Under the pieces are notes generated by a model. That model did not search any database, had not been told where the DNA came from, and saw only the letters and a list, made by a program, of their open reading frames with translations. A stretch of 32,000 nt of DNA, taken from assembly GCF_000327045.1 (NCBI RefSeq), contig NC_019940.1, forward strand, positions 2,954,038 to 2,986,037, given 5' to 3'. A program made the translations under genes and the position numbers. Shown piece by piece: positions 9,756 to 27,384 of this stretch (the stretch's first letter is position 1; every line of letters begins with the position of its first letter). The stretch is from Thioflavicoccus mobilis 8321 (GTDB lineage: Bacteria > Pseudomonadota > Gammaproteobacteria > Chromatiales > Chromatiaceae).

Positions 9756-10113
9756 GGGGGCGACTTGGCTTCGACGTGGGTCGCAAAACCTGAGGTGCAT
9801 GCCGAGGTGCGGATAACCTCGTAAAACCAGCCGCAAATCTATAGTTGCCAACGACGACAACTACGCTCTCGCTGCTTAATCCCAGCGGGCCTCTGGCCGT
9901 CGCTTGCCTGTGGGCGGCGGATTCCAGGGGTAACCTCACATAGGATCGCGGTGACGGGAGTCCGGACCTGATCCGCTAAAACCTCACGGAATCGCCGACC
10001 GATCGCCCTGCCCTTCGGGCGTTGGAAGGTTAAAAACAATAGAACGGGCTAAGCATGTAGGACCGAGGGCAGAGGGCTTGCGGACGCGGGTTCGATTCCC
10101 GCCGCCTCCACCA
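9756..10113 (+). ncRNA. ssrA: tmRNA (transfer-messenger RNA)
   Basis: The 5' GGGGGCG pairs with the 3' CGCCTCC-A-CCA, giving an acceptor stem with a G3:U70 wobble. A T-arm 'GGGTTCGATTCCC' is present. The internal tag frame at 9847..9879 (GCC AAC GAC GAC AAC TAC GCT CTC GCT GCT TAA) encodes ANDDNYALAA followed by a stop. Length is 358 nt. Confidence 0.95.
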
Positions 10114-10114
10114 A
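10100..10114 (+). repeat. attL-like direct repeat CGCCGCCTCCACCAA (the 3' end of ssrA)
   Basis: Exact 15-mer, repeated at 20996..21010. Confidence 0.75.
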
Positions 10115-10147
10115 TATTTTATTAATTAAATCATATAGTTATGATTA

Positions 10148-10179
10148 AGAAGGCCGCTCATTATGCGGCCTTTTTCTTT
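10148..10179 (+). terminator. Rho-independent terminator downstream of ssrA
   Basis: AAGGCCGC-tcattat-GCGGCCTT stem-loop followed by TTTTTCTTT, in an AT-rich stretch immediately after the tmRNA CCA end. Confidence 0.7.
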
Positions 10180-10217
10180 GCTCGTGGCCTTTCAGTGTGA
10201 TTTCCACTGTCGCAATT

Positions 10218-10469
10218 TCATTTACCTACCGACGCCGAATACCCGTGGCGGATAGCCGCTCGAGGAGGAGCCTCATCTAGGTTCAGTCCAAGACGGATGG
10301 CCGCGTCATCAAACGATGCCTCGCGGCCGGCCTCGAGATCGTTGAGACCGGCGGTAACAGCGCGGATGAAGTCGGCCCGCTCTTCGACGCCGCGCGGGAT
10401 CAAGTCGCCTGTGGCCGCAACGGTCGTTGCACTGCGCATGCTCGCGTCGTGTTCAGTTGGACTTGCCAT
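10218..10469 (-). CDS. Hypothetical small protein downstream of jetD (83 aa; coding status uncertain)
   Basis: ORF on the same strand, 75 nt after the jetD stop, with no obvious SD. The segment 'ADFIRAVTAGLNDLEAGREASFDD' loosely recalls C-terminal segments of small antitoxin/stability proteins, but I cannot assign a family. Confidence 0.3.
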   Translation of the reverse strand: MASPTEHDASMRSATTVAATGDLIPRGVEERADFIRAVTAGLNDLEAGREASFDDAAIRLGLNLDEAPPRAAIRHGYSASVGK

Positions 10470-10544
10470 CGCAACGGAAGTGGTAGAGATAAATCGGGTT
10501 CTCCGGATGTTCAGAACTTGCGACAGGGGATCAAGTCGCGGTCA

Positions 10545-11543
10545 TCACGAGGCCTCGCCGGGAGGTCCGGCGGCCAAAGCCCCCTCAAGAGCATCGGCCA
10601 TGCGCGGGTCTAGGGCGATGCGCTCCTGCTCGAGCCACAGTCCACGCGTAACAAGCTCACGAACCTGAGCCGGGGCGAAATCAAGGTTGAGGTCTTCGGG
10701 CCACCTGGTACGCAGCCCACCGGTGTTCGCAAGCTCGAACCAGAAGTCAGGTACTAACCACTTCAGGTGCGGTGCCCTCTCGCGCAAATGCAGCATGATG
10801 CGAACACCGTTCGGGTCTAAGTCGCCAAAGTGCACAACCGGGATCCCAGAGACGCGATCGAGCAAGTGTCCAACGGTGGCGGTGTCCCAGCCCGGCACGT
10901 GGGCCAGCAGCCAACCCGGTGGTGGACGTAGGTCACGCCATGCCCCCAGGTTCTCAACGAGGAGCACGGCACGAATAGCCCCCTCGAATACCAGACCGTC
11001 GAGCAAGGCTCGCTCCGGTATCGAGACCTCGCCTAGCACCGTCGCGATCCCGCTGAGGTCGACTGTTCCATTTGCCGTTCGAGCCGACAGCCGATCCGGC
11101 GGTCGCAACCTGATGGCCCCGTCATGAGAGGTGTCTGTCCCGCCGAGCGCACCCCTTCTGGCTTCGGTGAGCGATGCCTTGGAGTGCGATGCAGTGAGAG
11201 AGGCGGCGGTCCGCCGGTTAATTCGTTCCGGCAGCTCGGGGATCGCGGCCGCGCGTTCCATATCGAGCAGCCGGCCGTAGCCGTCGGGTGTTGGCGGCAG
11301 TCCCGCCGCCACAAGGTCCGCGAGTACGTCGCGCCACGCCGGCCAGACCCGGTCGATCAAGCCCGCAAGCTCCGTCCTGCGCTCCTCGACCACGCCGATC
11401 TCGTCACGGCGACCCGTGGCCCGTGTCCAAGAAAGCTCAGCAAGGGCGTCGTACGCCTCCAACTGAGTGCGTCGGCGCTTGAGGCTGCCACGTGAGAGCA
11501 GTTCCAATAATGCCAGGCGTGCGTTGTCGTTTTCCCAGATCAC
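10545..11543 (-). CDS. jetD: Wadjet JetD / MksG-like Toprim-domain nuclease subunit
   Basis: 332 aa. The C-terminal half carries Toprim-type acidic motifs: 'LLVENLGAW' (Glu197) and 'VHFGDLDPNGVRI' (Asp241-x-Asp243), spanning nt ~10815..10961. The GTG start overlaps the jetC stop (GTGA at 11540..11543). Confidence 0.82.
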   Translation of the reverse strand: MIWENDNARLALLELLSRGSLKRRRTQLEAYDALAELSWTRATGRRDEIGVVEERRTELAGLIDRVWPAWRDVLADLVAAGLPPTPDGYGRLLDMERAAAIPELPERINRRTAASLTASHSKASLTEARRGALGGTDTSHDGAIRLRPPDRLSARTANGTVDLSGIATVLGEVSIPERALLDGLVFEGAIRAVLLVENLGAWRDLRPPPGWLLAHVPGWDTATVGHLLDRVSGIPVVHFGDLDPNGVRIMLHLRERAPHLKWLVPDFWFELANTGGLRTRWPEDLNLDFAPAQVRELVTRGLWLEQERIALDPRMADALEGALAAGPPGEAS

Positions 11544-14500
11544 GCCTCGGCCCTCGTTCTTCGCCCGCTGACGAGCACCTCTTCGCGCCCGTCTGCATCG
11601 ACGCGCCGTACCAGGCGATAGGTGGTGTTACCTTCCGCTCTGGCGACCTCTGGCGCGGCGATGAGCAGCTGTAGGTCGAGTGTCTGGCATAGGTCGAAGA
11701 GAACGCCGAGGTTGTCGTGTGAAAGGCGGTTGGCCTCGTCGAGAAACAAAAAGCGGAGCGAACCGTGTGCTCGCTTCCCGCGCAGCAAATTCGCATCCCG
11801 TTCCCACTCGGTGAGCACTACCATCATCAAGGCAGCGCCAACGCCAATCGCCTCGCCGGTGGAGAGACGGGTCGGATTTGCAACCTCCCAGTCAGAACCT
11901 GCGGTACGGCGGACCTCCACCTGCAGGTGGACGTATTCACGATAATCCAGTAGCCGCTGGCCACCCGAGCGCCCGCCACCGTAGCGCCGAAAGATCTCGT
12001 CCAGGGCTTCCTCGATGGGGAGGTTTTCCTGAAAAAGAAGTCCCTGCACAGCACCTTCGCGCAGCGCTCGAAGCACCTGCTCCATGCGCTCCACCGACTG
12101 AACCTTCACCCGGATCCCTTCGATGCTGCCGAAGCTGACTCCACCCAGGTTCTGGTTGAGGCGGCTGACCTGGCCGCGTGCCTTGCGGATTTGAACGTCA
12201 ATGCCGCGGGCAACGTCCTCGCTGGCGCCACGCAGATCGTCCTCCTGTCGCTCAAGACGCTCTTCGAGCCCGGTCAGTTGATCGCGCAATCGCAGCAGCG
12301 CTTCTCGCGGGTCGTCCACTTCTGCCACCTGCGCCGGCAGCCGACGGCGCAACCAATCGCGCACCGCCAGCCAGAGCTCGAGGTAGACGTCGGCAAACCC
12401 GATGCCTTCCCCCTCCGCGTTCTTGTCGACCTTGGCGAGCAGATCCTGTGCCCCGTGAGCGGCTCGTAGCCGCTCCACGAGCACCGCCCTCTGCTTGTGT
12501 GCCTCCTGCACGAGATTAACGTGTCCGCGGATCCCGCTGACATCGCTGTTCCCGGAGGTAACGACGCTGGTGAGCAGATTCCGATCCGCTACAACCGCTC
12601 TCAGTCGCTCCCAGCGTTCAAGAGCCGGCTCAGCCTCGCGGCGTTCGACGGCAACCTTCTCTTCAGCCTCGCCGTACTCGCGAGCGGCTTGCGCCTGCTC
12701 GGCCTCGCGACGCCCCTTGGTGGTGTTCAGCTCATTGAGTTCCGCGGCGAGCACCGTCGCCTCTTCCTTCAATCGCTGCATCTCGTCATGCGCAGTCGCG
12801 ACTGCGGCTTCCGTGGGATCGGCGATCTCCATCTCCTTGAAGCGCCGCTCCGCAGCCCGAAGTTGTTCGACGGCAGCTCGGCGGCGACCATCGGCGTCCT
12901 GCCATTCGGCTGTGGCGCTCTCATACTCCTTGTCGGCAGCCTCAACCGCTACGTCCGCCTCGGAAAGCGCCTCTTCCGCCCGGCGCAGCTGTTCCTCGAG
13001 TGCGGGAACGAGCGACCGATTCGCTTCGAGCTGCGCTGGTGCGTCGTCCCAGCTCAGTGCCTCCGAGTTGCCCGCAACGAATTCCATGGCCTCGATTGCG
13101 GCATCCAACCGGTCGCGCTCATCCGAGAGGCGACTCAGCTCGGTTTCGAGAATCGCGACCTCCGCCTCCGAAAGCGGCGTTCGCCGCAGCGTGTCGAGCT
13201 TGTCCTCGACCACCCGGGCGGCTTCGCAGCAACGCTGAATCTCAGCCTGTGCCGCTTGGGCGGCATCGTGGTGCCGCTCGAGGTCGTCTCGCCGTTGCGC
13301 GTGGTCTGGAGGATCGAGCAACACAGCTGAACCGAGCAGACCGCGTAGCGCCTCAACACGTGGCGCAAGCTGGCGGGCCGCCTCCTGAAATCGGGTCATC
13401 GCGGCGCGGTGGTTCTCTTGTCGATCTTGGACCTCCGAGAGCTGACGACGAATCGCGGCTAGCACCGGTGCCGGGTCGCCGGCCAGCCACACGACCTGAC
13501 CTGCAAGCAGCGCTTCGCCATCCTCCGCCAGGCGCTCGAGCCTGCGTCGGCCCACTCGTGTGCTATCGATCTGAACATCCAGCGCATCAGCCTCAGCACG
13601 CAGCTCGGCGGCACGCTTCTCGCGCGCCTTCCGACCTAGGCGAGGACAAGTCGGAATCCGCGTGACGCGGATGGCCCGCTGCTCCGAAACGACGACATCG
13701 GTCAGTTCCTCGCTCTCGCGGGCCGCGCCCGCACCGAGTCGTGCAGTGTCCTCGTCGCGGCTTACGAACCACACATCGGAAAGCGAGTCCGGGCGGCCAT
13801 GGACCTGCTTGGCGGCTGTTGCCGGGTCATCCACGACCAGCGCCTGCACCAGCGGCCCCAGCCTCGCCTCCAGCACGGCGGCATCTTCGACAGACGCGTC
13901 CTCGAATGCACCGGCCAAGAGTTCCGCACCCAGGGCGTCCTTGAGTCGCAGCAGCTCCGTATCGAACGGCCCACCGGCGGCCAGGAGTTCTCGGGCCGCC
14001 GACTGGAGACTCTCCCGTCTCTCGACAAGCTCGGATTCGCTCGCCTTCACCTGGGTGAGATGCTGCACCACCATCTCGCGCGCGGCTTGAAGCTCCGGCA
14101 GCGAAGTTAGGGAGCACCCGAGTTCGGTCGCCAGGTGCTGGGCGCGCGTCGCGAGGTCGCGCCAGATCGGCTCGCGATCACCGAGCTCCTTTTGCCGCGC
14201 GCGCGCAGCGTCCAGCGTTCGCTGGCACTCAGCCAAATCCGCCTGGGCCTCGCGGGCTTGCTCGAGGCACCGCTCGCGCTCCTGTTCCGCCTGTTCGAGA
14301 TGCTCCGTGATCTCGATGCGGGCAGATCGCTGCCCCGAGAGGGAAAGGCTAAGTCTTTTGGCCTGCTCTCTGGCCTCGGCCTGGCGGCTGGCGAGCTTGC
14401 GGGCTTCGGCGAGTTCGGCCGCGATCGTGCTCAGACGCCCGGCCAGTGCCTCCAGATCCCGATACCGGCAAAGTTGTTGGCGGGCGGTCCCGTGGGCGGC

Positions 14501-15964
14501 GCCGGTTTCGACCGGCGCATCTGCCATCAGTTCCAGTGCCTCGAGCGCAGCCCGGTGCTCTCGCCTGTGCTCATCGGCATCAGCGAGCCGCTGCCTCGCG
14601 CCCCGCCGAGAGCGATCCACCTGATCGAGCTGAGCCCTGCTCGCGGCCACACGGCCAGCGATGGCTGCGATGGAAAGCTCGTCTTCTTCGAGTAGCCGCT
14701 CTGCCTCGCCCTTCCGACGGAGCACCTGCCTGTAAGCGCCAGCACGGCGGTGGAGTTCGTCGAGTCCGCGCTGGAGGTCTGCGAGGCCCACGCCGGCGCG
14801 CTTGTGATCGTCCCGACAGCGGTGCAGCGTTGCCCGGCAGCGGCTTCGGCTCTCCTCTCGCGCCTTGCGTTGACCCTCGGCAATCCGTGTATCGGCTTCG
14901 GCCGAAGACAGCTCTTCACGGCGGTGCGCGACTTTCTCGGCCGCCTGCAGAGCCTGCTGAAGACGCCGGAGCCAATCTTCGGCAGCGTTGACCTCCGCTG
15001 CGAGAGCCTCCTGGCGGGCGCCCTTCTTCCCGAGTTGATCGCGAACACGGGCGAGCTGATCCTCGGCCTCTGCAAGCTGCTCCTGTGCTTTGCGTTGTGC
15101 TTCCTCTGCCTCGGCCAAACGGCGTCGGAGTTCGTCTGCGCGCTCGCGGGTCGAGAGGAAGGCCGCGGCAAACATGGTCTGCCCGGCCTCGAAAACCCCG
15201 CCGATCTCACGTTCGAGCCGCTGCGCCTCCTGGACCTCGGTGCGCGTGCGTCTGCATGCATCGAGGTTGGCCTTCATGCGCTGCAGGGTGTCGGCCAGCC
15301 CGGTCTCTTCCTTCAACAAGAACGACCGCAACTCCGATGTCAGCGCCCGCGAGATGCCGCCCGTCATGCTGGTACGCAGCATCTCGTTGAGCTTGTTGCG
15401 CTCTTCGTCCGTTGCCAGGCGCAGCGGCGTCACACCGTGATCGAAAAGCGCGGCAAAGTAGTCGCGCGCGGTGCCGAAGATCTGCAAGCGCCCACCGAAG
15501 CGCGCGGCGTTCTCGCGCAGCTCATTGAGCTCGGGAACCACTTCGTGGTCACCCTGGGAGAGCAAGAGCACGTCTTGAAGGCGAACATCCGTGTCGAGCC
15601 CCGAGATGATGAAAGGCGTTGGCTCGACGGATGGCTCGCCCTTCCGGTCCAGGTGCACGCCGGCAATGAGGCACTGACCCGATGCGAGGGCGAATTCGAT
15701 CGCCGAGTAGGCAGGCCGGCCAGGCTCACCCAGGCGTCCCCAGATGCCTTTGTCACCGCCCGTCGCGCCCGTCTCCCCGAGATTCGTGAAACGCAGCCGG
15801 GACATGTCCGGGAGGAGCACGACGTAGGCCGCGATCATCACCGTTGTCTTGCCGGCTCCATTGGCCCCCTCGAGGGCCGTCACATGCCGGTCGATGAGAT
15901 AGCGCTCGTAGAAGACGCCCTTCCAGTTGACGAGCACGAGGGTCTGGGCGTGGGTACGGCTCAT
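11540..15964 (-). CDS. jetC: MukB-like SMC ATPase (Wadjet JetC / MksB)
   Basis: 1474 aa. The N-terminus has MukB-like character, 'LVLVNWKGVFYERYLIDRHVTALEGANGAGKTT' (Walker A, nt 15842..15868). About 1000 aa of Ala/Glu/Arg/Leu/Gln-rich coiled coil follow. The C-terminal head carries the 'LSTGE' signature and 'FLFLDEA' Walker B (nt 11735..11866). The ATG overlaps the jetB stop (ATGA). Confidence 0.93.
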   Translation of the reverse strand: MSRTHAQTLVLVNWKGVFYERYLIDRHVTALEGANGAGKTTVMIAAYVVLLPDMSRLRFTNLGETGATGGDKGIWGRLGEPGRPAYSAIEFALASGQCLIAGVHLDRKGEPSVEPTPFIISGLDTDVRLQDVLLLSQGDHEVVPELNELRENAARFGGRLQIFGTARDYFAALFDHGVTPLRLATDEERNKLNEMLRTSMTGGISRALTSELRSFLLKEETGLADTLQRMKANLDACRRTRTEVQEAQRLEREIGGVFEAGQTMFAAAFLSTRERADELRRRLAEAEEAQRKAQEQLAEAEDQLARVRDQLGKKGARQEALAAEVNAAEDWLRRLQQALQAAEKVAHRREELSSAEADTRIAEGQRKAREESRSRCRATLHRCRDDHKRAGVGLADLQRGLDELHRRAGAYRQVLRRKGEAERLLEEDELSIAAIAGRVAASRAQLDQVDRSRRGARQRLADADEHRREHRAALEALELMADAPVETGAAHGTARQQLCRYRDLEALAGRLSTIAAELAEARKLASRQAEAREQAKRLSLSLSGQRSARIEITEHLEQAEQERERCLEQAREAQADLAECQRTLDAARARQKELGDREPIWRDLATRAQHLATELGCSLTSLPELQAAREMVVQHLTQVKASESELVERRESLQSAARELLAAGGPFDTELLRLKDALGAELLAGAFEDASVEDAAVLEARLGPLVQALVVDDPATAAKQVHGRPDSLSDVWFVSRDEDTARLGAGAARESEELTDVVVSEQRAIRVTRIPTCPRLGRKAREKRAAELRAEADALDVQIDSTRVGRRRLERLAEDGEALLAGQVVWLAGDPAPVLAAIRRQLSEVQDRQENHRAAMTRFQEAARQLAPRVEALRGLLGSAVLLDPPDHAQRRDDLERHHDAAQAAQAEIQRCCEAARVVEDKLDTLRRTPLSEAEVAILETELSRLSDERDRLDAAIEAMEFVAGNSEALSWDDAPAQLEANRSLVPALEEQLRRAEEALSEADVAVEAADKEYESATAEWQDADGRRRAAVEQLRAAERRFKEMEIADPTEAAVATAHDEMQRLKEEATVLAAELNELNTTKGRREAEQAQAAREYGEAEEKVAVERREAEPALERWERLRAVVADRNLLTSVVTSGNSDVSGIRGHVNLVQEAHKQRAVLVERLRAAHGAQDLLAKVDKNAEGEGIGFADVYLELWLAVRDWLRRRLPAQVAEVDDPREALLRLRDQLTGLEERLERQEDDLRGASEDVARGIDVQIRKARGQVSRLNQNLGGVSFGSIEGIRVKVQSVERMEQVLRALREGAVQGLLFQENLPIEEALDEIFRRYGGGRSGGQRLLDYREYVHLQVEVRRTAGSDWEVANPTRLSTGEAIGVGAALMMVVLTEWERDANLLRGKRAHGSLRFLFLDEANRLSHDNLGVLFDLCQTLDLQLLIAAPEVARAEGNTTYRLVRRVDADGREEVLVSGRRTRAEA

Positions 15965-16677
15965 CTGTCAGCCTCCTCCTCGTCGTCCTCGGCTCCATGA
16001 CCGTCGCTGCCGTCGTTTTCGTCCTCTTCGTCAGCGTCGTCTCTCTCGACGGCTTCGCCGAGGACGATCTCACCGCTCCGGACCAGCCGTTCCAGCGCGG
16101 CTTGCCGGTCGCTCAGGTCGCGGACTGGCTCGGCGAATCGCATCAATGCGGGACGTAGGCGTAGCATCGCGTCGTCGACCGAATCGATGAACCCGAGGTC
16201 CGTCAGGCGCCGAAGGGCCTCGGCGACCTTGGTGCGGACGGTCTCGGCGGCTATCCGTTCATCGAACTTCCTGCGCCGTGGATTGAGGGTGCGGACCAGC
16301 GCTTCCGTCCCCAACAAACCAGATAGCCTCTGCAGAAGCGTCTCGCGCTCGACCATGCCCCCGTGCTGCAAGGTGGCGGGATCCAGGTACATCAGCGCGA
16401 GGGTCTGGCCGACGAGCATCTCGCCCGCGGTCAATTGGCGACGGCCGAGTCGATCCCCCGAAGGCAGCAGGTAGAAGTACCCGTCCGCCCGCTGCATCAG
16501 CTCACAGCCGAACCGCCGATAGAAGGGCTCGAGGTGGTCGAGGGCATCGACGAGGTAGTCATAGGCGGTGCCATCGTCGCGCCCGACGTGCCGACCGCAA
16601 CGAAGGGCGAGGTCCACCTCGGGAAAGTGCTCGTCGCTGACGGCCTCTTCGAGGGACTGAAAGCTGGAGGTGGTCAC
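15961..16677 (-). CDS. jetB: MukE-like subunit (Wadjet JetB / MksE) with an acidic C-terminal tail
   Basis: 'LALRCGRHVGRDDGTAYDYLVDALDHLEPFYRRFGCELMQRADGYFYLLP...MLVGQTLALMYLDP' is colinear with MukE as I recall it. The tail is 'ERDDADEEDENDGSDGHGAEDDEEEADR'. The track start at 16743 would overlap jetA by 70 nt. I use the GTG at 16677, which overlaps the jetA stop (GTGA) and follows a GAGGGAGGGAGAG SD. Confidence 0.88.
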   Translation of the reverse strand: MTTSSFQSLEEAVSDEHFPEVDLALRCGRHVGRDDGTAYDYLVDALDHLEPFYRRFGCELMQRADGYFYLLPSGDRLGRRQLTAGEMLVGQTLALMYLDPATLQHGGMVERETLLQRLSGLLGTEALVRTLNPRRRKFDERIAAETVRTKVAEALRRLTDLGFIDSVDDAMLRLRPALMRFAEPVRDLSDRQAALERLVRSGEIVLGEAVERDDADEEDENDGSDGHGAEDDEEEADR

Positions 16678-17978
16678 CGTCGCTCTCCCTCCCTCGGCAG
16701 TTCCCAGTCCTCCACTTCCAGGCGTGGCGCAACGGTACGCCACAGACGCTCAATCGCGCTGCGTGGCGAGGTGATGCGCGCGAGCACGTCGGCCACACGG
16801 CCTGTGACGGCGTAACGAAGATCAGCGGGAAACTGTGGTAACACCCACTCGGTCACCTCGGCCAGGGATCGAGCGCCCGCGGCCAGCGCGTCTTCCACCA
16901 ATGTCTCCATATTCAGGCCGGCATCTTCCGGATCGACAAGATCAGGCGAGCCCTCCCGGTCCGTACGTGGTCTCATGACAGCTGGCCGCTCAACTCGTGA
17001 TTCGAGGGGACGGAGCAGCCGGATTGAAAGTGCCGCCGCCACGAGCAAGTGGAACGGTGTCGACGGCCAGTTCGCGACCTGGTCGCGCAGCCGCTGACTC
17101 AACGCTCGGTCCGGGTCAAGGCGTACGACATCGCGAAGATAGCGATGAACGTATTGGTAATATTCCGACCACGCGCGCTGCCGGGCGCCGCCCCAGGCCG
17201 CTATGCGATCGACGTGCTCGATGACGCGTTGCACCGCCTCTTCGGGCTCGGCCTGGTCCGCCTCGGAGGCCAAGGCCTGAATCTCTTGCAGCAGCGCGAC
17301 GAAGTGATGGGTGTCGCGGAGTAGGACCTCGTTGAGTTCCCGCAGCGTATTGGTAGTCGTGTCGAGCAGCGACTGGCATCGATCGACGGCACCGAACCAA
17401 TCCACCTGCAGGAGTTTGGCGATCTCTGCCTGCACCTCTTCCTGTTGTGAATCGAGTCCCCGCTGCCGGCGCTCAATGCCGCCGACAAGATCGCCAACGG
17501 TTACCCGCAGGGGAGCCACCACATGCTCCCGCCAGGCATCCGCGGTGTCAGCACGCCTGGCTGCCGCGAGGATCTCGGCAAGCTGAGCCCGAAGCGTGCC
17601 CGTGAGTAGGGTCAAGCTCTCGCGTGTGAGTGCTTCATCGGCGATGAAGTACTCGACGACTGCGGCCGCCAGTCGCGTCAGCGTGTACTCACCCGATCGA
17701 ACGATGCCCGCGCCGTCCACTCGGACCAGCATGCGCTGGTCGCGGAGTCGTTGGATGGCGTGGGTCGCTCGCTTGCGTGGACGCTCCGCACCCGGGTCTA
17801 CCACGTCGCATACCTGTTCGAACATGTCGATCAGCACGTCTTCTTCGAACGACGCGAGGGACGCCCGGTCGGCCCGCAGGTATAGGCCGGCAAGAAAACA
17901 CAGGTCGAGCGTTTTCAGATCGAGATTGATCTGATCTCGTGCGAGTGCAGCAATGAGGCGGCTAGGGTCCGATGGCAT
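16674..17978 (-). CDS. jetA: MukF-like kleisin subunit (Wadjet JetA / MksF)
   Basis: 'RATHAIQRLRDQRMLVRV...YTLTRLAAAVVEYF', 'EIAKLLQVDWFGAVDRCQSLLDTTTNTLRELNEVL' and 'AWSEYYQYVHRYLRDVVRLDPDRALSQRLRDQV' are colinear with MukF as I recall it (wHTH, middle helical region, linker). The ATG at 17978 sits 6 nt after an AGGAG SD and shares one nucleotide with the abiEii stop (TGATG). Confidence 0.88.
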   Translation of the reverse strand: MPSDPSRLIAALARDQINLDLKTLDLCFLAGLYLRADRASLASFEEDVLIDMFEQVCDVVDPGAERPRKRATHAIQRLRDQRMLVRVDGAGIVRSGEYTLTRLAAAVVEYFIADEALTRESLTLLTGTLRAQLAEILAAARRADTADAWREHVVAPLRVTVGDLVGGIERRQRGLDSQQEEVQAEIAKLLQVDWFGAVDRCQSLLDTTTNTLRELNEVLLRDTHHFVALLQEIQALASEADQAEPEEAVQRVIEHVDRIAAWGGARQRAWSEYYQYVHRYLRDVVRLDPDRALSQRLRDQVANWPSTPFHLLVAAALSIRLLRPLESRVERPAVMRPRTDREGSPDLVDPEDAGLNMETLVEDALAAGARSLAEVTEWVLPQFPADLRYAVTGRVADVLARITSPRSAIERLWRTVAPRLEVEDWELPREGERR

Positions 17979-18853
17979 CAATCGCTCCTGCCGAGCTTCG
18001 CTGCGGCGATGGCGTGAGGCATGAGGAATCGGGCAACACCTTCGATCACCTCAGGTAGGCTGCCGGGACGAAGCGCCACGTTCTCCAGAAAAGCACTCCA
18101 CTGACGCCGCTTCTGCTCATCCTCGGCAAAGGCCGGCGTAAGGGCATCCGGCAGGTCCGCCGGGATCTCGGTCTCGCGCCGTTCGAAGGTCGCGGCGATT
18201 GCGCGGGCAAGCCGGTTGTCGTCGAACGGAAACGACTGGCTGAGGAGCCAAATGTCATAGAAGTCCTTCATTCGGCTGTTCGCGCGCCCAAGCGCCACCA
18301 TTGCCTGGAATTTCTCGGCAATCACCGTTTCGCGGGCGTAGGCGCGCAGGCGAGGTGCGGGAAGGTCCAGCATGCACGGGTAGTCGATGACCTCGGCACC
18401 CGGCTCCAACGCGTCTCCGAATGCGACGTCGACTGTTACAGCGATACGGGCACCACTGATCGATGCGGTCGTGCGCAGCCGCAGTCCGCCGTACTCGAAC
18501 TCCTCCCGGATCAGGTCGACACGTACCGCGTTCGAATCGAATTCGACGCCATCCTCGACGTCGATCGCGAGAATCTCCTGGAATGCTGCAGCCATCGCCT
18601 CCGGGCTTGGATCGCCGAATCCCAACAGGTCGAGATCACGCGTAGCCCGGTGTGGATCCGTAAACCAGCTCGTCAGCAGCATCGCGCCCTTGAGCACGAA
18701 TCGGTCGGAGAAGGCCGACGTGCTGAGACGGTAAAGCAGGCGTTCCAACGCATAGCGGGTGAGTATCAGCTCGAAACTCTGTCCCGTTTCTCGAGAGAGA
18801 TTCTGCAGACGCGCCCGAACGGAGGCGCCGACGTTTCTGATCTCCCTAGGCAT
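17978..18853 (-). CDS. abiEii: AbiEii/AbiGii-family nucleotidyltransferase toxin (DUF1814)
   Basis: 291 aa. The N-terminal NTase core 'FVLKGAMLL...HRATRDLDLLG' has a DxD at nt 18629..18637. Later segments 'TVIAEKFQAMVALGRANSRMKDFYDIW' are typical of the family. It is paired with an AbiEi-like gene upstream, overlapping it by 8 nt. Confidence 0.87.
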   Translation of the reverse strand: MPREIRNVGASVRARLQNLSRETGQSFELILTRYALERLLYRLSTSAFSDRFVLKGAMLLTSWFTDPHRATRDLDLLGFGDPSPEAMAAAFQEILAIDVEDGVEFDSNAVRVDLIREEFEYGGLRLRTTASISGARIAVTVDVAFGDALEPGAEVIDYPCMLDLPAPRLRAYARETVIAEKFQAMVALGRANSRMKDFYDIWLLSQSFPFDDNRLARAIAATFERRETEIPADLPDALTPAFAEDEQKRRQWSAFLENVALRPGSLPEVIEGVARFLMPHAIAAAKLGRSD

Positions 18854-19463
18854 TGGCGGTCAGTGCCTCGAGATACGGCCGCACGACTGTGGATACCCCG
18901 CCCTTCTCGGCTTGACGAGCAATTTCCGCCGGAGTCGCCTTGCGTTGCCTCAGCGCCTCCTGGAGGCCCTCGATCGCGACGGACAGGCCCACTTTGCCGC
19001 GATGTCGGAAGCAATCGGCCACCGTCTTGGCCACGCCGAAGACTTTCACCGACACGCCTTCGATCACGTGTGTTTCGATGCCCTCCCTCAGCAGGCTGTC
19101 TGTGAAACGCACAATGCGGATGCCCGCACCGCTGCGCTGCGGCGCCCAGTCCTTGGGTCCGATCGCCATCCAGACTTTCGGCGGTAGCTGGTCGGTCAGA
19201 CCGTGGAATGCCAACGCCGAGACGAGACATACGATGCCCTTGGGCACCCGCTTCGCGGCCTCCGCCAGGCTGTGATTGGGGTCGAGGTCGGCATCTGGCA
19301 GCTGATAGACGCCCCGCGACAGGCGGATGACTTCGCCGGCCCGCTCCATACGACTCATGGTCGCCGCGGTCACGCCGGCCTCGCGCAGCTCGAGCAGGCG
19401 CATGATTCCCTGCTTCTTCAGCAGGTTTTGGGCGAGCTCACGCTGCGCTCGGGGCTTTGCCAT
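18846..19463 (-). CDS. abiEi: AbiEi-family antitoxin / transcriptional autorepressor (type IV TA)
   Basis: 205 aa. N-terminal wHTH-like 'GIMRLLELREAGVTAATMSRMERAGEVIRLSRGVYQL', followed by 'CLVSALAFHGLTDQLP' and the characteristic C-terminal domain. It lies directly upstream of abiEii. Confidence 0.87.
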   Translation of the reverse strand: MAKPRAQRELAQNLLKKQGIMRLLELREAGVTAATMSRMERAGEVIRLSRGVYQLPDADLDPNHSLAEAAKRVPKGIVCLVSALAFHGLTDQLPPKVWMAIGPKDWAPQRSGAGIRIVRFTDSLLREGIETHVIEGVSVKVFGVAKTVADCFRHRGKVGLSVAIEGLQEALRQRKATPAEIARQAEKGGVSTVVRPYLEALTANA

Positions 19464-19512
19464 TGATACAAATACTTTATGTGTAGACCCTGAGTACCGA
19501 GGATTTGTATCA
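19464..19512. promoter_or_regulatory. Perfect 10-bp inverted repeat TGATACAAAT-(29 nt)-ATTTGTATCA abutting the abiEi start codon; candidate AbiEi operator or 5'-UTR hairpin
   Basis: Arms at 19464..19473 and 19503..19512, within the AT-rich divergent region between abiEi and the 406-aa gene. There is no SD between the left arm and the ATG at 19463. Confidence 0.45.
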
Positions 19513-19663
19513 TTTATCCGCGCGACGCGCCACCTGAACGACCACTGGCCGGCGGATGTGGGATCAATCGAGCACCGTGACAGAGGAATAAGACACAGAC
19601 CAGGTACCGCCCTCGCTGACTGACAGCAGCGAGGGCCCGGTCAGTCGAGAAGCGCTTTACGAG

Positions 19664-20884
19664 ATGGTCTGGTCCGAGCCCATGCTCCGGGTGGCGGCCC
19701 GGTTCGGCGTCTCGTCCAGCTACATGGCCCGCGTCTGCACGCTGCTCAACGTACCGCGGCCTGAGCGCGGCTACTGGGCGAAGCTGGCTATCGGCAAAGC
19801 GCCGAAGCAACCGCCGCTCCCCGAACCGCGTCCGGGCGACCCGCTCGAGTGGACGCGGGACGGAGCCCTACCGAAGCGGGCCCGGTCCCTCCCGAAGCCG
19901 CCCGACCAGCGGCCACGAGGGAAGCGCACGGTAAAGCGGCAGCTTCCGGATCGGCATCCACTGGTCAGCGGAGCCAAGCCGCTCTTCGAGGCAGGTCGTC
20001 TCTCCTGGCACGGCAAATACCTCAAGCCGGCCAAAAAACTGCTCGTCGACCTGCCAGTCACCCAGACCGGGTTGGACAAGGCGATCGCCTTTGCGAACGA
20101 GCTCTTCCTGGCGCTGGAAGCCAGGGACCATCGCGTGGTCATCGCGCCCAATTCGGAGCGATTCCACAGGGCAAAGGTCGACGAGCGGGAGAATCCCGGG
20201 AAAGGCCACCACCATCACGATCTGTGGTCACCGATGCGCTGCACCGTGGTCTACATCGGCACCGTGGCAATCGGCCTCACCGTCATCGAGATGTCCGAGG
20301 AAGCTGAGGCCCGCTACGTGAACGGCGAGTACGTTCGGCTGACCGACTACGTGCCCAAGCGCCGTGGCCGGTACGTTCACGACCATGGCTGGACGAGCAC
20401 CCACGACTTCCCGACCGGGCGCCGCTGTCTCCAGGCTTACTCGCCGTACCCGCGGGCAGATTGGACCCAGCAATGGCGAGAGACACCGTCCCGGGACCTG
20501 TCCGGCAGGATCCCATCCATTGTTCGGGAGCTGGAGAAGGCCACGGTCGAAATCGCGCGGCTCGTCGAGAAGGGGGAGCGCCAGGCGGAGATCGAACGCC
20601 AGCGTTGGGAGGCTCAGCGCGAACAGTGGCGTCGCGAAGAGGAGGCGCGGCAGGCCGCGAAGGCGTTGAAGGACAGCAAAGAGGAACTGCTCCAGGTCAT
20701 CGATGCCTGGGCGGAAGCCAAGCGACTCGAGGAGCTCTTCGCCGACGCCGAACGCCGGGCGCAGGATTTACCTGACGAGCAACGGGAGCGCACAATGGAG
20801 CGAATTCGACGGGCGCGCACCCTGATCGGAAGCACCGATGCGCTGGAGCGATTCGGCGCGTGGCGAGCGCCGGAAGAGCGATAA
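19664..20884 (+). CDS. Hypothetical protein (N-terminal HTH-like segment, His-rich middle, Glu/Arg-rich coiled-coil C-terminus)
   Basis: 406-aa ORF with host-like codon bias. Segments include 'VWSEPMLRVAARFGVSSSYMARVCTLLNVPRPERGYWAK', 'GKGHHHHDLW' and 'ERQAEIERQRWEAQREQWRREEEARQAAKAL'. The frame stays open upstream to 19592 but contains no ATG/GTG/TTG there. Confidence 0.65.
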   Translation: MVWSEPMLRVAARFGVSSSYMARVCTLLNVPRPERGYWAKLAIGKAPKQPPLPEPRPGDPLEWTRDGALPKRARSLPKPPDQRPRGKRTVKRQLPDRHPLVSGAKPLFEAGRLSWHGKYLKPAKKLLVDLPVTQTGLDKAIAFANELFLALEARDHRVVIAPNSERFHRAKVDERENPGKGHHHHDLWSPMRCTVVYIGTVAIGLTVIEMSEEAEARYVNGEYVRLTDYVPKRRGRYVHDHGWTSTHDFPTGRRCLQAYSPYPRADWTQQWRETPSRDLSGRIPSIVRELEKATVEIARLVEKGERQAEIERQRWEAQREQWRREEEARQAAKALKDSKEELLQVIDAWAEAKRLEELFADAERRAQDLPDEQRERTMERIRRARTLIGSTDALERFGAWRAPEER

Positions 20885-20995
20885 AATCTGCCTGAATCTG
20901 GCCAAAAAGCCAGACGAAGTGATCTGGGGGTATCTATGGGGGCATTTCTGGCGTTTAGCAGCGCAACGTATTGATTTATAGAGCGATGTGAAGGT

Positions 20996-21010
20996 CGCCG
21001 CCTCCACCAA
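20996..21010 (+). repeat. attR-like direct repeat CGCCGCCTCCACCAA
   Basis: Exact copy of ssrA 3' end nt 10100..10114, located 112 nt after the last island ORF. Confidence 0.75.
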
Positions 21011-23576: not shown

Positions 23577-24526
23577 CTCACGAATCAGACCGTATCGCCT
23601 CGGCCCAAGGCTGTCTCTTGGGCCAACTCGTTGGCGACGCCCTCGGCAGCCTCGTCGAATTCCGCTCGCCCGAGGAGATCCGGCGCGCATACCCAGATGG
23701 GGTCCGCGATCTCGCCGATGGCGGCACCTGGAACACCCTCGCCGGGCAGCCAACCGACGACTCGGAGATGGCCCTGCTGCTCGCGCGGATGCTGATCGAG
23801 CAGGGCACCTACGATGCCGCGGCCGCCCACGCGGCCTACCGGTTCTGGCTTGCGAGCGAACCCTTCGACTGCGGCATGACCGTCGCCACCGGCCTCACGG
23901 GGCAGCCGAACCACGACAGCCAGGCCAACGGTGCGCTGATGCGGATCAGCCCGCTCGGCATCTTCGGCGCCGGCCGGCGGCTTTCGAGCATCGCCGACTG
24001 GGCCGAACAGGACGCCGCCCTCACCCACCCGCATCGGGTGTGCCGCCAGGCCAACGCCCTCTTCGCGATGGCCATCGCGCACGCAATCGACACCGCACCA
24101 ACGCCCGACGCCCTGTACCGGACCATCCTCGACTGGGCCGAGGACCTCGCGGTCGCGCCGACCCTGATGGACGCGATCCGCCAGGCCGCCGACGCACCCG
24201 CGGCGGACCATGTCCGCCAACAGGGCTGGGTGCTGATCGCGATGCGCAACGCCCTGTGGCAGCTCCTGCACGCCCCGAGCGTCGAGGCGGGCCTCGTCGA
24301 CACCGTCATGCGCGGCGGCGACACGGACACCAACGCCGCGATCTGCGGTGCCCTCCTCGGTGCCGTGCACGGCCTCGCCGCGATCCCCGACCGCTGGACC
24401 GCCCCGGTGCTCGGCTGCCGACCCGCCGCCGGCCAGCCCGAGGTTCGCCGTCCGCGCCCCGAGTGCCTCTGGCCGGTCGATGCGCTGGACCTTGCCCGCG
24501 CGCTCGTCTCGGCCGCGCTCGAATAG
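23573..24526 (+). CDS. ADP-ribosylglycohydrolase family protein (DraG/ARH-like)
   Basis: 317 aa with the family motifs 'GQLVGDALGSLVEF', 'TDDSEMALLLA' and 'GGDTDTNAAICGALLGAVHG'. A GAGGA SD lies 8 nt upstream. Confidence 0.88.
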   Translation: MTHESDRIASAQGCLLGQLVGDALGSLVEFRSPEEIRRAYPDGVRDLADGGTWNTLAGQPTDDSEMALLLARMLIEQGTYDAAAAHAAYRFWLASEPFDCGMTVATGLTGQPNHDSQANGALMRISPLGIFGAGRRLSSIADWAEQDAALTHPHRVCRQANALFAMAIAHAIDTAPTPDALYRTILDWAEDLAVAPTLMDAIRQAADAPAADHVRQQGWVLIAMRNALWQLLHAPSVEAGLVDTVMRGGDTDTNAAICGALLGAVHGLAAIPDRWTAPVLGCRPAAGQPEVRRPRPECLWPVDALDLARALVSAALE

Positions 24527-24668
24527 ATGGCGCAGCCTCTGCCAACGATCACCGTAGTGAGGAATTTTGCGGGGGCGAGGCTACACTGAGGACCGACGCG
24601 GAACCGCCTTCATGGTCCAATGATTTGCGCTTGATCCACTCCCGACTACCGACCAGATTCCGAACACC

Positions 24669-26735
24669 ATGGCCAGATACCAAGCGACGCGACGCCGCGC
24701 CAGCCGACGCCGGAGGCCCATCGGGCGAGAGCTGCACGTCGCCCTGCCGTGGCTCGCGCTCGCCCTCATCGCGGCGCTCCCGGCCTCGCTCGGGATCAGC
24801 ATCCTCACCGACGAGGCCGAGCGCCAGCGGCATGACTTCCTCGTCGCCGAGGCGGCGCTGGCGCGCGGCGAGCGGGACTCGGTCCAGGATCTCGTCGCCG
24901 GCCTGAGCGACTATCCCCTCTTCCCCTACCTGCGCTACGCCGAGCTCGCCGCCGACCTGGAGGCAGCGAATCCAGAGGCAGTCGCGGCATTCCTCGAGAC
25001 CTACCCGGAGACCCCGCTCGCCGACCGGCTGCGCAGCGCCTGGCTCGATCGGCTCGCCCGGCAAGGCCGTTGGTCGGACTATCTGACCCTCTACCGGCCG
25101 GGTGGCCCTACCGCCGAGCGCTGCCACTACCTCCATGCCTTGATCGCAACCGAACTGGGCACCGAGGCCCTCGACGCAGTCGAACCCCTGTGGCTCGTCG
25201 GCCGTTCCCAGCCGGCCGCCTGCGACCCGGTCTTCACCGCCTGGCGCGCCGCCGCACGCCTGACACCGTCCCTCGTCTGGCAACGGATCGAGCTGGCGAT
25301 GGCCGCGGGTAGGCGCCGCCTCGCCGCCTATCTCGGGCGTTTCCTGCCCGAGGCGCCAGCGACCGACCGGGAATGGCTCGCCCGCTGGCTGGCCGTCGAC
25401 GCCGACCCGACCCTCATCGAGGACCCCGACAGCTTCCCCACCGATCACGCCGAGCGGGACGAGGTCATCGCCCATGGCCTCGTCCGGCTGGCCGCCGAGG
25501 ATCCCGAGCGCGCCGCGACCGCCTGGGAGACCTGGCAGTCGCGGTTCGCACCCACGGCAGCGCAGGCGGCCGCCGTCGAGGCGGCACTCGGGCTCGCCCT
25601 TGCGCAGCGCGGCGACGAGCGCGCCCTCGACTATCTCGATCGGGTGCCGGCGGACGGGGCCAACCAGGCCTTCCAGGAACGGCGCCTGAGGATCGCGCTG
25701 GCCCACGAGGACTGGCCAAGGGTCGCCGACTGGATCGAGCGGATGCCGCCCGGTGAGCGCAAGACAGAGCGCTGGCTGTATTGGCAGGCGCGGGCCGCCG
25801 ACGCCCTTGGCCAGACCGAGACCGCGCGGCACTTCTATCGTCAGGCGGCCGAGGTCCGCGGCTTCTGGGGCTTTCTCGCCGCCGAGCGGATCGGCGCGCC
25901 CTACAACCTGACCCACCAGCCGACAGAGGCCCCTGACCGGCTCCGCGACCTCGTCGCCGACCCTGCCCTGCGGCGCATCGAGGAGTTGTCCGCCCTCGGG
26001 CGCGAGGCGGACCTGCGCCGCGAGTGGACGCACCTGATCGCCGACCTCGACGCCGACGGCCTCCAGGCCGCAGCGCTCGTCGCCACCGTGCTCGACTGGC
26101 CCGACATCGCGATCCGCACGCTGGCCCGGTCCGGGCGCTGGGACGACCTGGCGCTGCGCTTCCCGACGCCGCACCGCGACCTGGTCCAGGCCGAGGCGAC
26201 CGCGACCGGCCTGCCCGAGAGCTGGATCTACGCCATCATCCGCCAGGAGAGCCTGTTCCGCCCGAGCGCCGGCTCGCGGGCCGGGGCCGTCGGCCTGATG
26301 CAGCTCATGCCGGCCACGGCCCGCTGGATCGCGCCCCAGCTCGGCCACTCGACGCCGACCCGGCCCGAGCTGCTGGAACCGGCGACCAACATCGCCCTGG
26401 GGGCCGGCTATCTGGCCCATGTGCGCGACCGTTTCGACGGCGACCCGGTGCTGGCGACAGCCGCCTACAACGCCGGGCCCGGCCGGGTGCGGCGCTGGCG
26501 CCCGACACGGCCCGAGGCGGCCGATCTCTGGATCGCCACCATCCCGTTCGACGAGACCCGCGACTATGTCGAGCGCGTGCTCGCCTACCGCCTGATCTAC
26601 GCCGCCCGACTCGGCCTCGACGACGGCCCGCTCGGCCGCTGGCTCGCGCCGCTCGGAGGCACCGACGAGGAGACCCCGGCCGGCGACCAGGCTCCGACCT
26701 CATCGACGGCTCTGCTAGACTCTTCACCACCATGA
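24669..26735 (+). CDS. slt: Soluble lytic murein transglycosylase (Slt70-like)
   Basis: 688 aa. A signal-like N-terminus ('LPWLALALIAALPASLG') is followed by a long superhelical repeat region. The C-terminal lysozyme-like domain carries 'IIRQESLFRPSAGSRAGAVGLMQLMPATA' and 'AAYNAGPGRVRRW'. Confidence 0.88.
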   Translation: MARYQATRRRASRRRRPIGRELHVALPWLALALIAALPASLGISILTDEAERQRHDFLVAEAALARGERDSVQDLVAGLSDYPLFPYLRYAELAADLEAANPEAVAAFLETYPETPLADRLRSAWLDRLARQGRWSDYLTLYRPGGPTAERCHYLHALIATELGTEALDAVEPLWLVGRSQPAACDPVFTAWRAAARLTPSLVWQRIELAMAAGRRRLAAYLGRFLPEAPATDREWLARWLAVDADPTLIEDPDSFPTDHAERDEVIAHGLVRLAAEDPERAATAWETWQSRFAPTAAQAAAVEAALGLALAQRGDERALDYLDRVPADGANQAFQERRLRIALAHEDWPRVADWIERMPPGERKTERWLYWQARAADALGQTETARHFYRQAAEVRGFWGFLAAERIGAPYNLTHQPTEAPDRLRDLVADPALRRIEELSALGREADLRREWTHLIADLDADGLQAAALVATVLDWPDIAIRTLARSGRWDDLALRFPTPHRDLVQAEATATGLPESWIYAIIRQESLFRPSAGSRAGAVGLMQLMPATARWIAPQLGHSTPTRPELLEPATNIALGAGYLAHVRDRFDGDPVLATAAYNAGPGRVRRWRPTRPEAADLWIATIPFDETRDYVERVLAYRLIYAARLGLDDGPLGRWLAPLGGTDEETPAGDQAPTSSTALLDSSPP

Positions 26736-27304
26736 AGAATCGCGTCACCTCCATCCTCTTCCTCACGCTCTTGCTGGCGAACGGCGTGGCCATCCAGGCC
26801 GACGACGCCAATCGCAATCGCGCCGCCATGGCCGATGCGATGACGCGGATGATGGACGCCATGGGCTTCCTCGGCGACAACGCCACGCCCCCGAGCACCG
26901 GCTGGTGGGCGGCCCCCGGCGGCGGACCGATGATGCCTTCCCTCGGCAACCCCATGCCCTACTACGGCATGGACCAGATGCTCGAGCGCTTGCCGCAGGG
27001 CACGCCGCTGCCAGGGGCGGGCGAGACGCCGCCGTGGCAGGTCGGACCGCTCGAGGGACTCTGGGAGAGCCCGAATGACGGCCTGTTGATCGTCCAAGGT
27101 AACCGCTACCGTCTCTATCAACCCTGCGCCGGGCATGTCGACGGCACGCTCCAGGTCAACGCCGACCGTCTCCTGCTGCGCAATCGTACCCAGGGGATCG
27201 AGCACCGCTTCGAGATCGCCCTGCAGGGCGGGCGCCTGGCCCTACGCAGTGACAACGGCCAGATCTACCTCTATCGGCGACTGCGATTGGGGATGCCTCG
27301 CTAA
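26732..27304 (+). CDS. Secreted hypothetical protein with a Met/Gly/Pro-rich segment
   Basis: The ATG at 26732 overlaps the slt stop (ATGA). The signal peptide is 'MKNRVTSILFLTLLLANGVAIQA'. The Met-rich segment reads 'AAMADAMTRMMDAMGFLG...GGGPMMPSLGNPMPYYGMDQM'. The track ORF 26024..27304 is an artefactual upstream extension into slt. Confidence 0.6.
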   Translation: MKNRVTSILFLTLLLANGVAIQADDANRNRAAMADAMTRMMDAMGFLGDNATPPSTGWWAAPGGGPMMPSLGNPMPYYGMDQMLERLPQGTPLPGAGETPPWQVGPLEGLWESPNDGLLIVQGNRYRLYQPCAGHVDGTLQVNADRLLLRNRTQGIEHRFEIALQGGRLALRSDNGQIYLYRRLRLGMPR

Positions 27305-27384
27305 GGCGGCGGCGACGCAGCCGAATGACCCGAGCGACCATATCGCGGCATATCTCCGGCCTCGAGACGAATTCGAGCATACCG

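Follow-up and report, generated by a model that had tools for sequence, protein, structure and literature searches.

The FEBD operon of Thioflavicoccus mobilis

The 32,000-nucleotide stretch of DNA analyzed here (the window) comes from the 4,048,921-bp chromosome of the purple sulfur bacterium Thioflavicoccus mobilis 8321 (Chromatiales, Chromatiaceae) and carries four consecutive minus-strand genes, referred to here as F, E, B, and D, which encode a condensin-like complex of the structural maintenance of chromosomes (SMC) type and a putative nuclease. A first-pass annotation of this DNA had read these genes as an anti-plasmid system of the Wadjet/MksBEFG type, and the homology of the proteins, the predicted fold of the nuclease, the gene order, and the mobile context described below all support that reading. 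The four genes are arranged as follows.

16674 to 17978, minus strand: F, a 434-amino-acid (aa) kleisin of the MukF type, in which an N-terminal winged helix is followed by middle and C-terminal domains.
15961 to 16677, minus strand: E, a 238-aa MukE/MksE-type kleisin-interacting tandem winged-helix element (KITE) subunit with an acidic C-terminal tail.
11540 to 15964, minus strand: B, a 1474-aa MukB-type SMC ATPase.
10545 to 11543, minus strand: D, a 332-aa JetD/MksG-type Toprim nuclease with a GTG start.

The open reading frames (ORFs) lie where the first-pass annotation had placed them, and the public gene calls for D, E, and F (AGA91397, AGA91399, and AGA91400; 332, 238, and 434 aa) proved identical to ours in an exact-sequence look-up. 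The kleisin had been given as 435 aa, which is its length from a preceding TTG; starting from the ATG, as in the public call, it measures 434 aa, and its assignment as MukF-like stands. E is 238 aa long, as had been reported, when it begins at the GTG overlapping the F stop codon, within a longest ORF of 260 aa. The three F-E-B-D junctions are indeed 4-nucleotide overlaps that read GTGA, ATGA, and GTGA. The four-gene operon is thus real, but the unit does not end at 17978, as had been supposed, since abiEii and abiEi continue it: the abiEii stop codon shares 1 nucleotide with the F start, and abiEi and abiEii overlap by 8 nucleotides. Because all of these junctions overlap, six genes follow each other without an intergenic gap from 19463 to 10545, a layout that suggests cotranscription of F-E-B-D with abiE.

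Judged by its sequence, the motor is of the Muk type and not of the Jet type. B contains the Walker A motif GANGAGKTT at residue 33, the signature LSTGE at 1367, and the Walker B motif FLFLDEA at 1405 (with E1410 as the Walker B glutamate), at the very residues where they had first been noticed. It scores 305 bits against Pfam MukB_N and 173 bits against MukB_hinge, with the hinge at residues 642 to 801, and its 1090 bits against the NCBIfam MukB equivalog clearly pass the cutoff of 699. Residues 5 to 1468 of B align end to end with the Photorhabdus thracensis MukB structure 9gm6, and no JetC chain was matched at an E value of ≤0.001 in a sequence search of solved structures. F matched Pfam KicB, MukF_M (90 bits), and MukF_C and narrowly missed the NCBIfam MukF equivalog (385.7 bits over residues 5 to 420; cutoff, 407). 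E matched Pfam MukE (122 bits) and MksE (121.5 bits) nearly equally and missed the NCBIfam MukE equivalog (119 bits; cutoff, 250), while its score against the MksE equivalog was 28 bits (cutoff, 400). Identities to Escherichia coli MukF, MukE, and MukB are 29%, 32%, and 26 to 39%, and the respective lengths of 434, 238, and 1474 aa compare to 440, 234, and 1486 aa. The profile searches proposed in the first-pass annotation therefore matched the Pfam MukF, MukE, MukB, and JetD_C families, and the unusual closeness of the three motor subunits to canonical MukFEB that it had pointed out is borne out by equivalog scores, alignment, and lengths.

The subtyping that had been proposed along with these searches assigned no type. 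Among the PADLOC 2.0 models for Wadjet types I to III (the classes of Doron 2018), JetA models left F unmatched even at an E value of ≤10, the best JetB match to E had an E value of 0.045, and only JetC1 (63 bits, B) and JetD1 (24 bits, D) were hit, so that no single type was matched with all four profiles. Since B passes the MukB equivalog and the JetA and JetB models miss F and E, the system fits none of the Wadjet types I to III.

Such a Muk-type motor could in principle be the housekeeping condensin of its host, i.e., a true MukBEF orthologue next to which the Toprim protein is an accessory unrelated to defense. B passes the MukB equivalog and F nearly passes its own, the lengths and order of F, E, and B match those of E. 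coli MukFEB, and RefSeq labels homologues "chromosome partition protein MukB/MukE." Canonical MukBEF (E. coli; P. thracensis 7NYW and 9GM6) is also the closest solved structure for B, with the same domain order and lengths. The window operon nevertheless differs from canonical MukBEF, which would pass all three equivalog cutoffs, form a nuclease-free operon, and be inherited vertically: here, B shares only 26 to 39% identity with its canonical counterpart, E and F stay under their cutoffs, and a nuclease gene that keeps all catalytic residues overlaps the B stop codon. To our knowledge, Chromatiales lie outside the gammaproteobacterial group known to use MukBEF.

The nuclease carries the Toprim motifs that the first-pass annotation had described, namely, VENLG at 196 (E197) and GDLDPNG at 240 (D241 and D243). 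It scores 36.3 bits against Pfam JetD_C (cutoff, 22), its family profile matches the Corynebacterium glutamicum MksG chain 8b7f over the Toprim half, and its RefSeq name is [quoted passage not shown] An AlphaFold model based on 51 relatives (mean predicted local distance difference test [pLDDT] score, 76) consists of an N-terminal helical or winged-helix-like domain (residues 1 to 99; pLDDT about 70 to 83), a poorly predicted linker (100 to 139), and a Toprim-containing C-terminal half (140 to 325; pLDDT 80 to 94). The sole significant PDB matches of this model in Foldseek were MksG 8b7f (E = 3.5e-9), Pseudomonas aeruginosa JetD 7til, and topoisomerase VI-A 2zbk, and the full-length alignments to MksG and JetD have a template modeling score of 0.38. 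Prediction of the fold had been suggested as a check, and lack of JetD homology or fold had been named as grounds for giving up the Wadjet reading; the JetD_C score and the resemblance of the model to MksG and JetD point the other way.

Ten residues of D (K122, R178, E197, N198, G218, D241, D243, P265, E305, and E307) are invariant in 30 relatives with identities down to 24%, and K122, R178, E197, D241, D243, E305, and E307 remain invariant or nearly so in 113 relatives. The predicted Toprim fold would thereby carry a glutamate, a DxD metal site, and an ExE pair, and we regard E197, D241, D243, E305, and E307, together with K122 and R178, as candidate catalytic residues. The conserved positions correspond to E236, D279, and E349/E351 of C. 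glutamicum MksG, of which the former two were tested and the latter pair was proposed as catalytic (PMC10123090), and to E248 of E. coli JetD, likewise tested or proposed as catalytic (10.1101/2023.11.03.565488). A topoisomerase-like enzyme with a catalytic tyrosine was considered and rejected, since no tyrosine is invariant among the 30 relatives; the chemistry of D thus fits hydrolysis.

D had been called comparatively short for a JetD, and the shortening can be placed in its N-terminal half: in the PADLOC alignment, residues 159 to 297 of D align with 218 to 366 of JetD1, which leaves about 60 residues missing upstream. None of the Pfam N-terminal JetD families (DUF3322/aCAP-type domain) was matched in D. 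The family is small: 1.84 billion proteins contain 300 representatives of it after clustering at 50%, and nearly all full-length members measure about 310 to 360 aa. Two longer proteins (P0175, 1052 aa; P0243, 975 aa) have a D-like region at the C terminus and are possibly fusions or merged gene calls.

Horizontal spread and place in the SMC tree

Relatives were sought with two conserved peptide patterns as seeds for a scan through 185,579 species genomes (one per species), and the resulting numbers are lower bounds. At least 99 relatives of D were confirmed over about eight phyla, and 80 loci, identified here by L numbers, were kept. Their hosts are Gamma-, Beta-, and Alphaproteobacteria, Myxococcota (including several closed Sorangium chromosomes), Planctomycetota, Binatia, Spirochaetes, Acidobacteriota, and Gemmatimonadota. 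With very few exceptions, the F-E-B-D order is kept in nearly all of these loci whose contigs are long enough. Over 7.7 to 10.5 kb, the DNA of the window block itself is 92 to 93% identical to that of counterparts on a closed Binatia chromosome and in bins of gamma- and betaproteobacteria. The tmRNA (transfer-messenger RNA) gene lies directly downstream of D in L001, L017, and L026 as well, and the tmRNA sequences differ.

No relative was found on viral contigs, and the plasmid collection contained only one carrier, the 880-kb Burkholderia pyrrocinia plasmid pBPJTT (L083), where the operon has a SAVED-domain gene on one side and an IS21 insertion sequence element on the other. RefSeq names the products there "chromosome partition protein MukE/MukB," with chromosome-segregation Gene Ontology terms, and "DUF2220 domain-containing protein." Clustering of the flanking ORFs of all loci revealed no conserved fifth gene besides AbiE and a 406-aa protein, both of which accompany the operon in one sub-lineage only.

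This distribution is that of a horizontally moving accessory module and not of a housekeeping condensin. The first-pass annotation had likewise taken the locus for an accessory one, and its location in an island, the DNA identity to blocks in unrelated genomes, and the scattered occurrence agree with that view; a syntenic and universally present condensin, which would have spoken against it, is not what at least 99 relatives among the scanned genomes represent.

The lineage of the operon also has a place in a published phylogeny. Bürmann et al. 2025 compiled Wadjet-group operons and listed an operon of Sorangium So ce56 as "FEBG" in their Data S1 (PMC7617805). This operon (CAN95856-59) is our locus L056, and the window proteins share 74% (F), 77% (E), 58% (B), and 62% (D) identity with it. 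It belongs to a clade of eight from Bradymonas, two Sorangium strains, P. aeruginosa NCMG1179, Massilia, Sulfurifustis, Thiococcus, and Plasticicumulans (PMC7617805), whose members named in Data S1 include Bradymonas sediminis, Massilia sp., Sulfurifustis variabilis, Thiococcus pfennigii, and Plasticicumulans lactativorans. According to the data of that study, all eight are FEBG operons, and its tree file places them, with a bootstrap value of 100, as the sister of Endozoicomonas plus E. coli MukB. The next clade out again contains FEBG operons, with SMC proteins of about 1490 to 1530 aa, e.g., in Salmonella Paratyphi B, Shewanella, and Vibrio natriegens (PMC7617805). The authors describe MukBEF as being without a nuclease, which was lost repeatedly, and leave the FEBG clade undiscussed; only genes directly adjacent to nuclease-less operons were inspected (PMC7617805).

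Because B is 58% identical to the So ce56 protein compared to 26 to 39% to E. coli MukB, and because the nuclease family is shared, B of the window probably falls into the FEBG lineage. Gene order, an SMC protein of about 1470 aa, and a nuclease of about 315 to 330 aa are common to the window and the FEBG operons of Data S1 (PMC7617805); the window copy differs from the others in residing in a tmRNA island and being joined to AbiE. Our literature search found no name such as "Wadjet IV" or "MukBEFG" for this lineage. The window operon thus joins a lineage that is catalogued but uncharacterized and, as the domain of D is also already named in RefSeq, the novelty of the locus is modest.

Taken together with carriage in a repeat-bounded tmRNA island, the 92 to 93% identical blocks in unrelated genomes, the rarity and scatter of the lineage over about eight phyla, and its position outside the canonical MukB clade make it very unlikely that the operon is the housekeeping condensin of T. 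mobilis.

The tmRNA island and its AbiE genes

The remaining features of the island and its borders are listed here.

9756 to 10113, plus strand: ssrA, the tmRNA gene (ARAGORN), with the tag peptide ANDDNYALAA; integration target and left island border.
10100 to 10114, plus strand: left 15-nucleotide direct repeat CGCCGCCTCCACCAA, the tmRNA 3' end plus 1 nucleotide, an attL-like core.
10218 to 10469, minus strand: an 83-aa ORF between D and the tmRNA gene, with no family match.
17978 to 18853, minus strand: AbiEii nucleotidyltransferase toxin, 291 aa (PADLOC AbiEii, 411 bits; Pfam AbiEii, 180 bits).
18846 to 19463, minus strand: AbiEi antitoxin/regulator, 205 aa, the first gene of the six-gene unit (PADLOC AbiEi, 289 bits).
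19464 to 19512: inverted repeat with 13-nucleotide arms TGATACAAATACT and AGGATTTGTATCA (repeat search), directly upstream of abiEi.
19664 to 20884, plus strand: a 406-aa protein with no family match, with an N-terminal helix-turn-helix-like segment and a C-terminal charged coiled coil.
20996 to 21010, plus strand: right 15-nucleotide direct repeat CGCCGCCTCCACCAA, an attR-like core and the right island border.

The insertion that the first-pass annotation had described as bounded by ssrA and lying beside a toxin-antitoxin or abortive-infection module could be delimited more sharply. The 15-mer occurs at 10100 to 10114, where the tmRNA gene ends at 10113, and again at 20996 to 21010; DNA homology extends to 21011 with L004 and to 21009 with L005, and the 15-mer also marks the corresponding island end in L004. 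Since repeat copies, tmRNA end, and homology ends coincide, the island spans 10114 to 21010, about 10.9 kb, flanked on one side by the target gene and on the other by a repeat of that gene's 3' end. Inspection of the sequence where the homology block ends revealed the repeat, which was confirmed in L004; a second copy of the last 25 nucleotides of the tmRNA gene with ≤3 mismatches was not found, and general repeat finding was uninformative. The GC content of the island (0.644) equals that of the left flank.

No integrase family was matched among the scanned island ORFs, including those of 406 and 83 aa, in Pfam, NCBIfam, PADLOC, or PHROGs, nor was an integrase found in the tested ORFs upstream of the operon in L001 and L017. 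This integrase-less tmRNA island may be mobilized in trans or may be a decayed remnant. The 406-aa protein, which matches nothing in these four collections and is not a recognizable integrase, travels with the AbiE-FEBD block, being 90 to 94% identical in L004, L005, and L026 and present as a remnant in L001. The 83-aa ORF, without a match in Pfam, NCBIfam, or PADLOC, may represent either a small cargo gene or no gene at all; an ORF 65% identical to it follows D in L010.

A GC-rich hairpin followed by a T-run, AAGGCCGC-TCATTAT-GCGGCCTT-TTTCTTT, lies at 10150 to 10179 on the plus strand, 37 nucleotides after the tmRNA gene and on the island side of the repeat, and went unreported in the consensus terminator scan. 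The inserted DNA appears to supply the terminator of the tmRNA gene. Scans for promoters and terminators around the two ends of the six-gene unit were uninformative.

The AbiE pair has the composition of known type IV toxin-antitoxin modules of this kind, i.e., adjacent genes for an AbiEi regulator and an AbiEii nucleotidyltransferase, here overlapping by 8 nucleotides, with an inverted repeat upstream of abiEi. It differs from known AbiE in preceding an SMC-nuclease operon without a gap, a linkage seen in one sub-lineage only. The pair probably stabilizes the island or adds abortive-infection defense, and the inverted repeat at 19464 to 19512 is a candidate AbiEi operator in the promoter region of the unit, through which the antitoxin would regulate itself, and possibly the control point of all six genes. 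The AbiE-FEBD block moves as a unit in L001, L004 to L007, L011, and L026. In L004 it lies in a defense island, as a Gabija-like pair (an AAA_21/OLD-Toprim protein and a UvrD-type helicase; L004, 11193 to 14340) directly follows D.

The gap-free abiEi-abiEii-F-E-B-D order and the joint movement of this block in several loci would also suit a target other than plasmids, namely, other invaders that are circular or circularize (phage genomes, phage-plasmids, or excised integrative elements, for example), with AbiE and the operon as a composite module that possibly serves the island and not the host. Long MukB-type arms could moreover shift the size range of substrates, as may be surmised from 10.1101/2025.03.10.642339. 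AbiE is, however, absent from most F-E-B-D loci and therefore lies outside the core mechanism, and no member of the lineage was seen on viral contigs. The characterized Wadjet systems act on plasmids, with circular topology as the known signal (10.1101/2023.11.03.565488, 10.1101/2022.10.04.510915). We therefore consider a main target of this other kind unlikely.

Beyond the island, the left flank encodes PrpC. On the other side, the GC content climbs from about 0.64 to 0.71 to 0.73 beyond about 24 kb (24000 to 30000), in a region encoding a lytic transglycosylase, a DUF58 protein, and a TgpA-type transglutaminase.

Proposed function and relation to MukBEF

We propose, with a probability of roughly 80%, that the four genes form a Wadjet/MksBEFG-type extrusion-and-cleavage system on a MukBEF-type chassis. 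Like type I Wadjet (E. coli GF4-3, P. aeruginosa PA14) and C. glutamicum MksBEFG, the locus is a codirectional operon of kleisin, KITE, SMC, and Toprim nuclease genes, and its SMC protein combines a hinge and a long coiled coil with the Walker A, Walker B, and signature motifs. The nuclease is predicted to share the fold of its counterparts in these systems as well as their conserved acidic and basic residues. Compared with type I, the SMC protein has about 370 additional aa and a hinge of the MukB type, JetC chains are unmatched by B and JetA/JetB models by F and E, and the N-terminal half of the nuclease lacks about 60 residues.

By homology with type I and II Wadjet (10.1101/2023.11.03.565488, 10.1101/2022.10.04.510915, 10.1101/2025.03.10.642339), we infer loop extrusion, sensing of circles, cleavage, and plasmid restriction. 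The kleisin F would dimerize via its N-terminal winged helix and couple two B dimers, each with an E dimer, and the B ATPase (Walker A at 33, E1410) would power DNA loop extrusion. On a small closed circle, extrusion would run to completion until the two motors stall and only a short, sharply bent piece of DNA remains. A D dimer could then bind this bent segment and cut both strands, presumably with E197 and D241/D243 as metal ligands and with E305/E307, K122, and R178 as further conserved residues. The plasmid would thereby be linearized and subsequently degraded, and the chromosome would be spared, as extrusion there could never finish. The resting geometry of the MukBEF dimer already resembles that of cleavage-competent type I Wadjet (10.1101/2023.11.03.565488), so that licensing of the nuclease may be arranged differently here. 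Since MukB has arms about twice the length of those in E. coli JetC (10.1101/2025.03.10.642339), such arms could also alter obstacle bypass or the size limit of restricted circles.

Several points weigh against this proposal. With the PADLOC JetA and JetB models missing F and E, and the JetC and JetD models scoring just 63 and 24 bits, the Wadjet assignment rests on architecture, nuclease, and published tree and not on type I to III profiles. The placement of B, in turn, was deduced from sequence identities. The N-terminal domain of D is shorter than that of type I JetD and matches no JetD N-terminal profile, and its docking on the complex and the licensing of the nuclease could thus differ; the kleisin binds MksG in C. 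glutamicum (PMC10123090), and an N-terminal JetB motif binds the N-terminal domain of JetD in type I Wadjet (10.1101/2025.03.10.642339). Finally, the taxon labels of many relatives stem from metagenome bins, which can misplace mobile islands, a concern tempered by the several related loci that sit on closed chromosomes.

The F-E-B motor might also serve two purposes, folding or segregating the chromosome while D restricts circular DNA. Complexes without a nuclease do organize chromosomes, as do MukBEF and the MksBEF of P. aeruginosa; the latter, in strain PAO1, is a MukBEF-like accessory SMC complex in a genome with another condensin and differs from the window system in having no nuclease and acting in chromosome organization (PMC10586767). 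That JetABCD may do both has been suggested by the authors of 10.1101/2022.10.04.510915, and B has an arm of MukB length and a MukB-type hinge. No feature of the sequence speaks for a chromosomal role, however, and carriage on an island together with recent horizontal transfer argues that hosts are independent of the operon. We thus deem such a double role improbable and favor the extrusion-and-cleavage system acting in defense.

That MukBEF descends from a Wadjet-like system is still a hypothesis (PMC10586767, 10.1101/2022.10.04.510915, 10.1101/2025.03.10.642339), and MukBEF has been stated to lack this nuclease (PMC7617805). A tblastn search of plasmid records led us to a 341-aa JetD_C ORF of Aeromonas caviae KAM479 that is 33% identical to D (L082, 8827 to 9852), on a record that is really a 4.9-Mb chromosome. 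The gene shares its strand with canonical mukB and begins 7.2 kb downstream of it, beyond an intervening IS605 tnpB gene. In A. veronii (L084, 10001 to 11002) and A. bivalvium (L085 and L086, 10001 to 10984), the strand is likewise shared, and the gene follows that of a 1475-aa MukB at a distance of 5.4 kb, with variable small genes between the two. Homologues of the A. caviae ORF were found only in Aeromonas, in many species and with identities from 96% to about 50%. Between these two Aeromonas species, MukB, which is 50% identical to that of E. coli, is 95.6% identical, and the fast-evolving nuclease-like protein only 50.9%.

These Aeromonas JetD_C proteins (about 330 aa) keep the catalytic residues, and their profile matches that of the D family with 99.1% probability (E = 1e-18, 239 columns); it matched no solved MksG or JetD chain even at an E value of ≤10. 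In a neighbor-joining tree they form a clade of their own, outside the clade linked to F-E-B-D operons, and our literature search found no mention of Aeromonas in this context. The gene is compatible with an ancestral nuclease retained near a domesticated MukBEF; independent capture or an unrelated function would be alternatives. We only tentatively entertain, as a possibility with the odds against it, that the FEBD lineage represents the nuclease-armed ancestral state of housekeeping MukBEF and that domestication may be incomplete.

For annotation, the lineage is a trap, as the NCBI MukB model accepts B and RefSeq calls homologues "chromosome partition protein MukB." Because the JetA and JetB profiles are blind to the system as well, defense inventories may miss it and genomes may be reported to contain a spurious housekeeping MukBEF. 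In biological terms, the operon is compact, intact, highly conserved, and apparently mobile; it is collinear with E. coli MukFEB and belongs to the nuclease-bearing branch closest to canonical MukBEF, and it thus bears on the question of whether MukBEF arose from a Wadjet-like defense system. If the Aeromonas protein does work with MukBEF, at least one "chromosome-only" MukBEF would also restrict plasmids, and the T. mobilis system would provide a natural experimental bridge between defense and chromosome-organizing SMC complexes.

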